A DNA stretch of 64,000 nucleotides from Escherichia phage 4MG. The stretch lies in sequence record NC_022968.1; one strand, 5' to 3'. The translations under genes were made by a program, and so were the position numbers. The notes under the pieces were generated by a model. It had not been told where the DNA came from and ran no database searches. It saw only the letters and a list, made by a program, of their open reading frames with translations. Positions 4,846 to 35,062 of the stretch are shown here, one piece after another (positions within the stretch are counted from its first letter, which is position 1; each line of letters begins with the position of its first letter).

Positions 4846-5322
4846 ATGAGTAAAACAAAACGCAAACCTACCCAACACATTTCGGTCACTTTGGACTTCC
4901 TGAGAACCGTTCCTGGATTCGATGTGACACAAGAAAGTGGACTCCGCGCTGCCCTTTATGCAGTAGGATTCCAAGTCTCCGACAGTGAGGGTAATCCTAA
5001 GCAAGTAACTATGCTTAACAACAAAAATGTACGATGTGCTAATTTGCCATATTTGTACCGTAAGACCACGATCTTTGTCGGTGACATGCGTCCGGACTAT
5101 CCGTATGCAAAAATTTATAACGGCGTTGACATCCTTGATGTCGGTGTGTATTCAGAGCGCGACATGGAGTTCGTTATCGACTTGCCTTATGACATCCCGG
5201 TAAACGAAAAAGTCAACACCCGTAAGTACACAAAACGCGGTGACCGCCCAGACTCGTTCGATATTACGTTCAATAGTGAAGATGAAGCACGTCTGAGTGA
5301 CGCATTTGGTCTGGGGGACTAA
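4846..5322 (+). CDS. hypothetical protein
   Basis: Track ORF 4792-5322 trimmed to ATG with GGAG RBS; preceded by hairpin CGGGGAGAG-TTT-CTCCCCG. Confidence 0.5.
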   Translation: MSKTKRKPTQHISVTLDFLRTVPGFDVTQESGLRAALYAVGFQVSDSEGNPKQVTMLNNKNVRCANLPYLYRKTTIFVGDMRPDYPYAKIYNGVDILDVGVYSERDMEFVIDLPYDIPVNEKVNTRKYTKRGDRPDSFDITFNSEDEARLSDAFGLGD

Positions 5323-31952: not shown

Positions 31953-31977
31953 ATCTAAAGTGGCACATCAATTTCCC

Positions 31978-32006
31978 TTGACCTGAAGTGTCCCGTCGAT
32001 TATACT
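31978..32006 (+). promoter_or_regulatory. sigma70-type promoter
   Basis: TTGACC - 17 nt - TATACT, then GAGGAG RBS and ATG at 32037. Confidence 0.7.
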
Positions 32007-32036: not shown

Positions 32037-32150
32037 ATGACTGGACTTGAATTTTTAGTGCTAAGTGCGTGGGTGTGCTTCATGCTGTTCGGAAGCATTG
32101 GCCTGCTTCTGTGGGTATCTGTTGGTCCAGTGGCTAAGAAGGACGAATGA
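32037..32150 (+). CDS. small membrane protein (37 aa)
   Basis: Below track cutoff; strong promoter and RBS; hydrophobic. Confidence 0.4.
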   Translation: MTGLEFLVLSAWVCFMLFGSIGLLLWVSVGPVAKKDE

Positions 32151-32811: not shown

Positions 32812-33099
32812 ATGGCTTTCCACAAGGTTGTAAAAGCGCCTGCGAAACGGGCGCATATAAAGAATTACCCACACAAGAAGTCTGAAGCGAGAGACCGAAG
32901 AGTGAAGTGGTTATGGGACTATACAAAATCACTTCTTGGGGTTATCCTCGTAAACAGCGGCTATCATAAGTTTCACTTCTACGAACAATGGAGTGCTGTG
33001 AAAAAAGAGCTTAAAGAACTCGATGCTTACGATGAGCGAAACACCTGGCTCATTATCTCAGATGTTAAGTGGGAGCACAACAGATTTTATCGGTGGTGA
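32812..33099 (+). CDS. hypothetical protein
   Basis: RBS TAAGGAGAACAC; last gene before the non-coding region. Confidence 0.5.
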   Translation: MAFHKVVKAPAKRAHIKNYPHKKSEARDRRVKWLWDYTKSLLGVILVNSGYHKFHFYEQWSAVKKELKELDAYDERNTWLIISDVKWEHNRFYRW

Positions 33100-33112
33100 C
33101 CACACAAAAGGG

Positions 33113-33141
33113 TTGACGTAAACTGTCAGCCCTGTTATAGT
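33113..33141 (+). promoter_or_regulatory. sigma70-type promoter with no ORF downstream
   Basis: TTGACG - 17 nt - TATAGT directly after the last plus-strand gene; no RBS or ORF follows. Confidence 0.55.
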
Positions 33142-34805
33142 CATTATACGCCACATCTCCTGAAGCGGGAGGATACAATCACCAGACCTGCGTGAAAGGT
33201 TGTACACCCTGTTAACATTCTGTCATGTCGATAAAACACCATTTCATAAACATATACCCCACAACATGTCGATGCTATAAACATGTCTGAAGTGACCCAG
33301 CAAATTAGCCGGGGACTAATCGCCTTGCGATATACCCACCCCTCCCCCGCCCGGAGGGAAACGTAAACAGGCCCCTCTCTTTGTGTTTTCTGGCACGAAA
33401 ATATCCTGAAGAGGCAGGGCCTCGAAGACAGGTGTTTCTGGGCGCAATCTCTATGTCTGATGTGTTAGACGGACAATCACAGCCCCTCCGGGTTGTCAAG
33501 GATCTTTACAAAATATCTGAGAGGTCTGACCACGAGACCCTATCGAGTTTTTGGCACGATGATTGCATGATGATTACGTGGCGCAACTAATGATTACAAG
33601 TGCAACTATTAGCAATGTGACAGTTTACACCTGTTACAGCACGATTTGCTCTTGACTTGCTTATATTTGTGTGAATGAGCCTATTTAACATAATACACGT
33701 TATGCGAACCACAGATCACCGGGAGACAGGCCATATAGTCACATATGTTATCATTGCATCAGTGAACCATACCACAAGGCAACCAATAGCCTGCTACATG
33801 TTACCACCACGACAGTTTCACGCTGTTATTATTCATTTTGTGGGGTGTTTTGTCGATGAGAATACAAATGATAATCATTCTGAATACGATTTCGATTTCA
33901 GTTTCGAAATGAAAACCATTCTCAAATGGAAAATATTTTGTAAATCTGCCATAAAAAGCTTGACACAGAGGGAAAAATGTGTTTAGCATTTAAGCCTATC
34001 TTGAGCATCCAACCGCAATGATAATCATTAACGTTAAGCCTTGCTACGCCTGGCTTTAATAGACTTTTCCTATCAATAAAAAGCTTGACAGTTTACACCT
34101 TTTCATGCTCAAGAAAACCGCTTTTCATCGGGCATCTAGCCCGGTTTACAACATGATTAATCATGATTTGTCAATCATTAAACATGATTAAACCGCTTTT
34201 GATCTTCATAACCTGGCGACACAATAACACGAGGGCGATCATGCGATAGCGTGATCGGTGTTATCGTGGCGAGGTTATAAAATACTTCAACTATGCAATA
34301 GTTGCATTATGAATTATTCATTGTTCTAGTCATCTTGTCTGTTAACGCTTAGGCGCTAACGAGCCACGATAACGCGAACGAAAACGATATTTATTATCGT
34401 TTGAGTTACCCTCGTGTTATTGTGTCGCTCGCTCCGCTCGCGCCACTCACCCCGATAACGCGAACGATATTTTTATTTGACAAAAGATGATTACTATGCT
34501 CAAAAAAGACAGTTCACACAAAGGGTTAGATGAGAAAAGTTATCATTTCAGGGCTTTTGCTTCGTATTCACTCAATTTGCATAAAAACACGGTGTTTATT
34601 CACTTGATAACCTGCGTTATCATTTTTGGGGTGTGAGTGAGTCAAAGGCGGGTAATGATACACGATTAAACGCAATATAACGCGTTTTGAGAGGGTTTAT
34701 CTGTTAGGCTTGCCGTTGTATGGCTTCAAAGAGATCTCTTTAAATTCACTTTTTTGCATAAAGACGGGTAAAGATTTAGTGTTTTGTTTGGGGTGTTGGT
34801 ATGAT

Positions 34806-34834
34806 ATGCAAAAAGCCGGGGATTATCCCGGCCT
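34806..34834 (-). terminator. rho-independent terminator (minus strand)
   Basis: Minus-strand hairpin GGCCGGGATAATCCCCGGC followed by TTTTTGCATAT, just after the stop of gene 34853-35062. Confidence 0.7.
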
Positions 34835-34852
34835 TACTTGGTGTGACTTTGA

Positions 34853-35062
34853 TCAGATAAACATTGCAGCATAATGATCGTAAAGGTCTTGCGCTTGTCT
34901 GGCAGGCCAGCGGCTTTCATCCACCGGGACACGTAGATCAATCGGGCGGCGATCTTTCAATCCGTTAACATGAAAAAATGTTTCACCTGTAAGCTGTACG
35001 ATCTCCAGTTTAACGAGGTTGTCAGAATCTTTTACGGTCTGCTGAATGAGAATAGTAGTCAT
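34853..35062 (-). CDS. hypothetical protein
   Basis: Trimmed ORF; minus-strand GTGGAG RBS. Confidence 0.45.
   Translation of the reverse strand: MTTILIQQTVKDSDNLVKLEIVQLTGETFFHVNGLKDRRPIDLRVPVDESRWPARQAQDLYDHYAAMFI

Follow-up and report, generated by a model that had tools for sequence, protein, structure and literature searches.

In bacteriophage T7, phiOR, pacB and CJ have roles in packaging, and they include a gene-less promoter placed a few hundred base pairs before the right terminal repeat and aimed at the genome end or concatemer junction. Our study describes a comparable arrangement in Escherichia phage 4MG (NC_022968.1), from which a stretch of 64,000 nucleotides, referred to here as the window, was analyzed: a sigma70-type promoter at 33113-33141 that has no gene behind it and points at a predicted direct terminal repeat (DTR). 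Based on DNA matches of the region around this promoter to Vequintavirinae myoviruses of ~145 kb, belonging to the genera Seunavirus (GAP31, PVP-SE1, EspYZU15 and others) and Mydovirus (KB57, BIS47 and others), the window phage is classified as a Seunavirus-like myovirus of this subfamily. In the genome map of rV5, the equivalent region has been an unexplained ~2-kb 'non-coding' box since 2013 (PMC3606486), and the curated annotation of PVP-SE1 leaves it empty. Other described systems share some of the features of this locus. PhiTE, a Certrevirus of the same subfamily, has a non-coding locus whose pseudo-ToxI RNA is expressed during infection (PMC3475682). T4-type phages carry PeSL cassettes (PMC2839356, PMC4122927), in which a repeated stem-loop is combined with a near-consensus sigma70 early promoter, and in the PR'-tR' (6S RNA) and oop-type units of lambda a strong sigma70 promoter is followed by a short untranslated transcript. 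The two features that are central to the comparison are these:

33113-33141, + strand: sigma70-type promoter, TTGACG, 17-nt spacer, TGtTATAGT, predicted start ~A33148
33468-33983, no strand assigned: predicted DTR of 516 bp, with edges mapped from Erwinia phage Hena1

The promoter consists of TTGACG (33113-33118), a spacer of 17 nt and TATAGT (33136-33141), just as an earlier sequence-only reading of this DNA had described it, and it also has an extended -10 element (T33133 G33134) that had gone unmentioned. With a hexamer score of 10/12, its -35, spacer and -10 are those of the extended -10 class of sigma70 promoters. To call it one of the best matches in the window was generous: it is a good site, but 30 sites score at least 10/12 and 11 of them reach 11-12/12. 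Promoter-like sites are no commoner in the 7-kb neighbourhood than in shuffled sequence (16 versus 13.9 ± 3.5), and the hexamers alone do not go beyond chance; it is their conservation that raises this promoter above it. In an alignment of the footprint from 16 distinct relatives of the two genera, the TTGA of the -35, the TG, and T-12, A-11 and T-7 of the -10 are invariant in all 16, while positions -10 to -8 vary, giving the hexamers TATAGT, TATGCT, TATTCT, TATATT and TACTAT. Invariant contact positions within a varying hexamer are the footprint expected of selection on sigma70 contacts. The promoter was found in every one of the 20 Seunavirus and Mydovirus loci examined, and in BIS47, where a 47-nt insertion parts the old -35 from the -10, TGcTATAGT is nonetheless kept. 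For several relatives, 33113 is the exact position at which megablast homology begins. Taken together, this comparative evidence makes it very probable that the promoter is real and selected. A degenerate promoter pattern matched 112 stretches in IMG/VR, only five of them related loci according to blastn, and no conserved -10-like sequence of the kind that forms the promoter-proximal pause element of lambda Q-type systems was found in the initial transcribed region.

The statement that no ribosome-binding site or open reading frame (ORF) follows the promoter also holds. Up to 33590, the + strand has only ORFs of 26, 27 and 69 aa; none of them has a Shine-Dalgarno sequence and none is conserved, the 27-aa one meeting a stop after 6 codons in EspYZU15. 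ORFs on either strand between 33058 and 33590 gave no PHROG match, and no tRNA or tmRNA was found. We therefore rejected a small-protein gene downstream, for which there is neither a PHROG match nor conservation of start codons and frames. Convergent gene blocks enclose a gene-free gap of ~1.7 kb, at whose left margin the promoter stands. The + strand block ends at 33099 with a real gene (phrog_30110), and the promoter is the final element of this rightward early block. The - strand block ends at 34853 and is closed by a strong terminator at 34814-34835 (GCCGGG-ATAATC-CCCGGC followed by TTTTT), unlisted by the consensus scan. Transcription signals around the gap are asymmetric, with the - side closed by a terminator and the + side carrying a promoter instead.

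In GenBank, relatives have many short 'hypothetical protein' coding sequences across the gap, some of them over the DTR edge (GAP31_074, EspYZU15_171, KE22 CDS0101-0106, FENT2 CDS0248-0257); the ORF annotated as GAP31_074 and EspYZU15_171 straddles the predicted edge. Having no conserved start or PHROG match, these are probably false gene calls. An attempt to find the equivalent region of rV5 through the flanking 71-aa protein was abandoned, this protein having only 8 homologues and none in rV5.

The edges of the DTR were carried over base by base, via collinear blocks, from Hena1, in which a DTR of 519 bp is annotated. The left edge is ATGTGTTA|GACGGACA at 33467|33468 and the right edge ATGTGTT|TAGCAT at 33983|33984, so that ATGTGTT stands at both, at 33460-33466 followed by A|G and at 33977-33983 followed by |T. 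In 13 relatives the distance between the edge motifs is 514-516 bp; in KB57 it is 514 bp. The latter is the length of the DTR of KPP-1, a close relative of KB57, as determined by coverage and PhageTerm, and the packaging of KPP-1 has been called T7-type (PMC9862379); terminal redundancies of 458 bp are on record for the Vequintavirus phages EdH4 and HdK5. With the DTR placed by homology in this way, the -35 lies 355 bp upstream of its predicted left edge, at which the promoter is aimed. The promoter would therefore stand ~870 bp from the right end of virion DNA and read toward that end, and in concatemers it would read into the junction.

The sequence between the promoter and the repeat contains two conserved inverted sites:

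33225-33253, no strand assigned: dyad ATGTCGAT-N13-ATAAACAT, inverted half-sites ATGTYKAT, conserved in Seunavirus, Mydovirus and Hena1
33266-33284, no strand assigned: dyad ATGTCGAT-GCT-ATAAACAT, same half-sites with spacing 10 bp shorter (one helical turn)

These two dyads are the only such inverted pairs in the window. A five-fold array of both site types was identified in E. coli NZ_CP010229 (positions 4995-5170 of our locus L133), in an intergenic space with a fic gene on one side and a hypothetical gene on the other; the surrounding tRNA-Leu genomic island, with an integrase, a MobH relaxase and ArdC, is present in 37 E. coli genomes. Over ATGTCGATGCTATAAACATGTC the island matches the phage with 22/22 identity, and the offset of the dyads is 41 bp in the phage versus 40 bp in the island. 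When the proteins of the island were compared with those of the window, no homologue was found in common, even for the proteins adjoining the array, among which a cognate binder might be sought; this points to a host origin for the factor that would bind the dyads. The exact dyad 20-mer had no match in IMG/VR beyond the source phage's own contig. The half-sites TTATCGACA and TTATAAACA resemble DnaA boxes (TTATNCACA) and were rejected as such for a consistent deviation at position 6, and an H-NS-type TCGATAAA core is put forward as a lead only. Hena1 keeps the dyad, C-rich and edge blocks; over the 1 kb upstream, however, no promoter-like site was found, and a canonical terminator is present. 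Since the blocks are kept there without a promoter, they probably act as DNA, and much of the conserved downstream sequence probably behaves like protein-binding DNA.

What the compared sequences show directly is the footprint of the promoter, the lack of any gene behind it, its placement with respect to the DTR and the DNA-type dyads. Because the promoter is gene-less, lies 355 bp from the repeat and points at it, it is more likely to send transcription into a region controlling DNA ends and packaging than to make a free-standing small RNA. Our preferred reading, to which we give a probability of roughly 45%, is a cis-acting role of non-coding transcription at the concatemer-junction region, in a position comparable to that of T7 phiOR. 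In this proposal, host RNA polymerase would start near 33148, make a short 5' hairpin and cross a conserved, non-coding, C-rich leader with its two dyad sites of protein-binding type and a C-run/G-run hairpin. About 320 nt past the start it would meet the left edge of the 516-bp DTR, which is the concatemer junction, or the right genome end in virion DNA. The relevant product would be the act of transcription itself, or a heterogeneous untranslated transcript working in cis, and its effect would be to deliver RNA polymerase, possibly gated by a dyad-binding factor, into a region next to the repeat that controls packaging, end processing or replication. The transcript would probably end at a mix of weak hairpin/T-run sites, through Rho, or at the junction itself.

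The likeness to T7 covers the gene-less promoter upstream of the right repeat, reading into the junction, as far as a DTR placed by homology allows, and the short direct terminal repeats. At the edges, ATGTGTT matches the T7 class II (CJ) pause core ATCTGTT in six of seven positions, and the left edge of Hena1 has ATCTGTT exactly; the exact 7-base core does not occur in the window. It has been reported that class II pause sites affect E. coli RNA polymerase too (preprint 10.64898/2026.02.12.705533). A far more speculative extension, which we consider a long shot, is that a polymerase stopped or regulated at the dyads, and then paused at ATGTGTT on both DTR edges, marks the junction for the terminase cut or for repeat duplication. 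It would be an equally long shot to see in such pausing a host-polymerase version of the packaging signal that couples T7 RNA polymerase to CJ, in a large myovirus without a polymerase of its own.

It is important to note that several observations weigh against the cis-acting reading. First, that the promoter is transcribed at all is something we infer. Second, the likeness to phiOR is, on present analysis, positional only, as is the link to packaging in the window phage: phiOR is a phage-polymerase promoter and the window promoter a host sigma70 one, no phage RNA polymerase being known in the subfamily. Third, Hena1 does without the promoter, which means that transcription into the junction is no universal requirement in the subfamily. 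Fourth, spacing appears unconstrained, as the distance from promoter to repeat is 261-451 bp among relatives and reaches ~1.8 kb where there are insertions. Fifth, the leader (33148-33300) is not AT-rich, with 55.6% A+T versus 54% in the window, and an origin built from a promoter and an unwinding element in the style of T7 or T4 is consequently not evident locally; a transcription-activated origin of the T7 primary origin or T4 oriF type would call for such an element, and the A+T-rich stretch (~65%) lies 650-950 bp away, at 33800-34100. Finally, the hairpin at the 5' end of the leader suggests, by its compensatory changes and a strand-specific U·G pair, some selection on the RNA itself. Four pairs of this helix of 4-5 bp form in all 16 sequences, and two pairs change from C-G to G-C in 6 of the 16; because of the U·G at its base, the hairpin pairs fully on the + strand only. 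These compensatory changes appear to be essentially one evolutionary event, which separates two sequence types.

This last observation leads to the idea of a discrete RNA that acts in trans. The elements of the leader that bear on it are listed below:

33156-33172, + strand: 5' leader hairpin TCTCC-TGAAGCG-GGAGG, beginning 9 nt past the predicted start
33340-33358, + strand: C-rich hairpin CCCTCC-CCCGCCC-GGAGGG
33353-33391, + strand: alternative hairpin GGAGGG...CCCTCT (33353-33378) abutting the T-run, weak (-7.6 kcal/mol, 14-nt loop), candidate 3' end ~244 nt from the start
33405-33439, + strand: optional hairpin module CCTG..GAGGC-AGG-GCCTC..CAGG (hairpin 33405-33432, -10.4 kcal/mol) then TGTTTCT, another weak candidate for the 3' end, ~290 nt past the start

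According to this alternative, an early RNA of 240-320 nt would start at ~33148, be stabilized by its 5' hairpin, end at ~33391, at ~33439 or by Rho, and target the host, the phage or a defence system, in the manner of the PhiTE pseudo-ToxI. A conserved promoter with no ORF behind it would suit such an RNA, as would the 5' hairpin just described and a leader more conserved than the flanking genes: 33100-33297 is 79.5% identical to Mydovirus KB57, while the upstream genes have no DNA-level match. A functional phage non-coding RNA also has its precedent within the subfamily (PMC3475682), although the window locus lacks both the 36-nt tandem repeats of ToxI and an Rfam ToxI match. The comparisons that the sequence-only reading had proposed as checks did not favor an RNA. 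Rfam 15 gave no match at gathering scores over the window, and only 7 chance-level matches at E up to 10 between 32900 and 35100, one of which (RF02349 psRNA2, - strand, 11.7 bits, E = 8.5) ends within 33113-33131. Single-sequence folding gave z-scores of -0.99 on the + strand and -0.85 on the - strand, and RNAalifold gave -8.28 versus -8.07 on the two strands, with consensus helices nearly absent and no strand preference.

With regard to the end of the transcript, the stem of CCCTCC (33340-33345) and GGAGGG (33353-33358) is present as had been noted, with 6 G+C pairs and a 7-nt loop, and so is the T-rich run CTTTGTGTTTTCT (33379-33391). Together they had been suggested as a possible transcript end; they do not form a canonical intrinsic terminator, because the stem ends 20 nt before the T-run, and the terminator scan reports nothing there. 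The C-run and G-run are kept in all relatives, including Hena1, in an ambiguous register and without clean covariation, and the + strand has no folding advantage in this block; Mydovirus relatives lack the T-rich tail. On the - strand, 33338-33358 reads GGGCGGGGGAGGGGTGGG, with four G-runs and 1-nt loops, a potential G-quadruplex on the template strand of rightward transcription; the four-G-run form is limited to the sequence type of the window, GAP31 and PVP-SE1. The optional module at 33405-33439 occurs in 5 aligned relatives and is absent in others. At several points of the leader, PVP-SE1, Iguana, GAP31, AV124, KpS11 and M5b have or lack similar small modules rich in hairpins (30-90 nt), which differ by compensatory changes from phage to phage and behave as mobile palindromic inserts would. 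Such changes in the optional modules (GGAC/GTCC to GGGC/GCCC, GGGC/GCCC to GTGC/GCAC) could be counted in favor of an RNA. A rut-like stretch with more C than G (33205-33282, 22 C versus 7 G) suggests that an untranslated RNA could be terminated by Rho. Lambda PR'-tR' and oop-type units are similar in having a strong sigma70 promoter with a short untranslated RNA behind it; they differ from the 33113 locus, which has no strong terminator, no Q-type antiterminator context and no downstream genes in the same orientation.

Against the trans-acting RNA, then, stand the nearly empty folding results, the lack of a canonical terminator, the single event behind the 5' hairpin changes, and the fact that the best-conserved blocks are dyad DNA sites, common to a bacterial island and kept in promoter-less Hena1. 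We regard it as possible but unlikely. Of the original proposal, an orphan promoter driving a non-coding RNA, the promoter half stands, since the footprint and the lack of coding capacity point to a genuine sigma70 promoter without a gene; a discrete RNA of ~250 nt is not established.

The second alternative arises from a further copy of the promoter, listed here with the insertions found in relatives:

31962-32006, + strand: sister promoter cassette GGCACATCAATTTCC-CTTGACCTGAAGTGTC...TATACT, the gene-driving copy, with a ribosome-binding site and ATG at 32037
L123:6644-8128, - strand: T5orf172/GIY-YIG-like gene, 494 aa, inserted between promoter and DTR
L110:2791-3417, - strand: HNH/AP2-like gene, 208 aa, inserted between promoter and DTR
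Hena1 801-1016, opposite strand: small unclassified gene at the place corresponding to the insertions

The promoter at 33113 is a second copy of the early-promoter cassette that drives genes at 31978. The upstream arm of the sister cassette stands before the 33113 homologue in EspYZU15, PVP-SE1 and EspYZU14, the copies swap two spacer variants (GTAAACT and CTGAAGN), KE22 and Iguana have additional copies in front of genes, and a decayed duplicate of cassette and hairpin lies at 33358-33418. CTGAAG also recurs in hairpin loops; it was rejected as a special motif, because coding bias makes it common (63 + strand copies in the window) and its three copies in the gap are not significant. As in the PeSL cassettes, the two copies (31978 and 33113) combine a stem-loop with a sigma70 early promoter, among small and variable early genes and at indel or homology breakpoints between relatives. 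PeSLs, however, finish with a Shine-Dalgarno sequence and a gene's start codon, which the 31978 copy has and the 33113 copy, with neither element after 33141, has not; their stem-loop lies upstream of the promoter, whereas that of 33113 encloses the -35; and they belong to another phage lineage, with only two copies of the present cassette in the 64-kb window.

Under this explanation, 33113 would be the terminal, gene-less copy of a recombination-prone cassette: as early genes shuffle by recombination between copies, whichever cassette comes last, where the plastic region ends, is necessarily without a gene, and its transcript would be incidental and removed by Rho. The multiple copies with interchangeable arms and spacers, the breakpoints exactly at the cassette, the decayed duplicate, the rut-like stretch, which would favor Rho, and the PeSL precedent (PMC4122927) all agree with it. 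It does not account for the -10 and TG pattern, which is that expected of selection for promoter activity and not for recombination homology alone, nor for the presence of the promoter in 20/20 loci and its survival of the BIS47 insertion. The genes inserted between promoter and DTR in two IMG/VR relatives are homing-endonuclease-like, lie on the opposite strand and would not be expressed from the promoter. For the same reason we rejected the idea that the gap is an empty expression slot. Insertions of homing-endonuclease-like genes fit a highly conserved target sequence. Overall, we consider the shuffling explanation improbable.

The remaining alternative concerns the inverted repeat around the -35:

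33109-33133, + strand: inverted repeat AGGGTTGAC-GTAAACT-GTCAGCCCT, enclosing the -35, with a 9-bp stem and one G·U

That this hairpin serves mainly to terminate the upstream + operon, leftward transcription from the repeat region, or both, with the promoter-like hexamers secondary, is very improbable: the - strand does read like a terminator (AGGGCTGACAGTTTACGTCAACCCT then TTTTGTGTGG, -9.2 kcal/mol), a canonical terminator stands at the corresponding position in Hena1, and the spacer GTCAGCCCTG is conserved to a degree unusual for a promoter spacer, but the helix, 84% paired over the 16 sequences, shows no compensatory change, 5 of the 16 (EspYZU15, PVP-SE1, EspYZU14, AV124 and SalP219) lack the GGG/CCC extension along with the - strand T-tract and retain only a 4-bp TGAC/GTCA stem, and the invariant T-12, A-11, T-7 and TG are left unexplained.

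Other motifs were recorded in and around the repeat. The 11-mer GTAAACTGTCA occurs three times in the gap, at 33118-33128 (+, promoter spacer), 33618-33628 (-, inside the DTR) and 34086-34096 (-, just past the DTR); GACAGTTT has no further + strand copy in the window, and its complement AAACTGTC has just one other copy on that strand. A promoter-like TTGACA-18-TAGCAT lies across the right DTR edge (33960-33989), with the cut immediately 5' of the -10. It is conserved in Hena1 and in all relatives with the motif, and it would be whole only at the left genome end and in concatemers, reading inward. Inside the DTR, at 33552-33567, is a perfect sigma54 consensus, TGGCACG-N4-TTGCAT, the sole exact TGGCAC-N5-TTGC in the window. 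Such elements are conserved in Seunavirus with a varying N4 (ATGA, AGTC, GATT) and absent in Mydovirus, and TGGCAC half-motifs are also found at 33391 and, in the promoter cassette, at 31961. The E. coli Fur box GATAATGATAATCATTATC has a 13-nt core, AATGATAATCATT, which occurs twice (33867-33879 and 34017-34029), and this host iron regulator, or a factor like it, may bind inside the repeat or close to it. Farther right are dense ATGATTA/TAATCAT repeats (34150-34195) and a perfect 20-nt inverted repeat GCGACACAATAACACGAGGG with arms at 34216-34235 and 34409-34428, 173 nt apart; the interval 34216-34428 contains repeats of CCACGATAACGCGAACGA that are partly conserved in Hena1.

Both the junction-proximal orphan promoter and the promoter-shuffling cassette are known kinds of element, of which the 33113 case is a variant. 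The analysis places a terminal repeat in the 'non-coding' box of rV5-like phages, defines motifs at the repeat edges and adds a selected, gene-less, host-type promoter aimed at the repeat. It also serves as a warning to annotators, given that the small ORFs called over the region are probably spurious. Many rV5-like phages are candidates for therapy or biocontrol, and the locus offers a testable handle on how their DNA ends are processed. If the RNA acts in trans, it would be a new early phage RNA conserved over two genera; if the role is in cis, in packaging or replication, the T7 mechanism would be extended to myoviruses that depend on the host polymerase.

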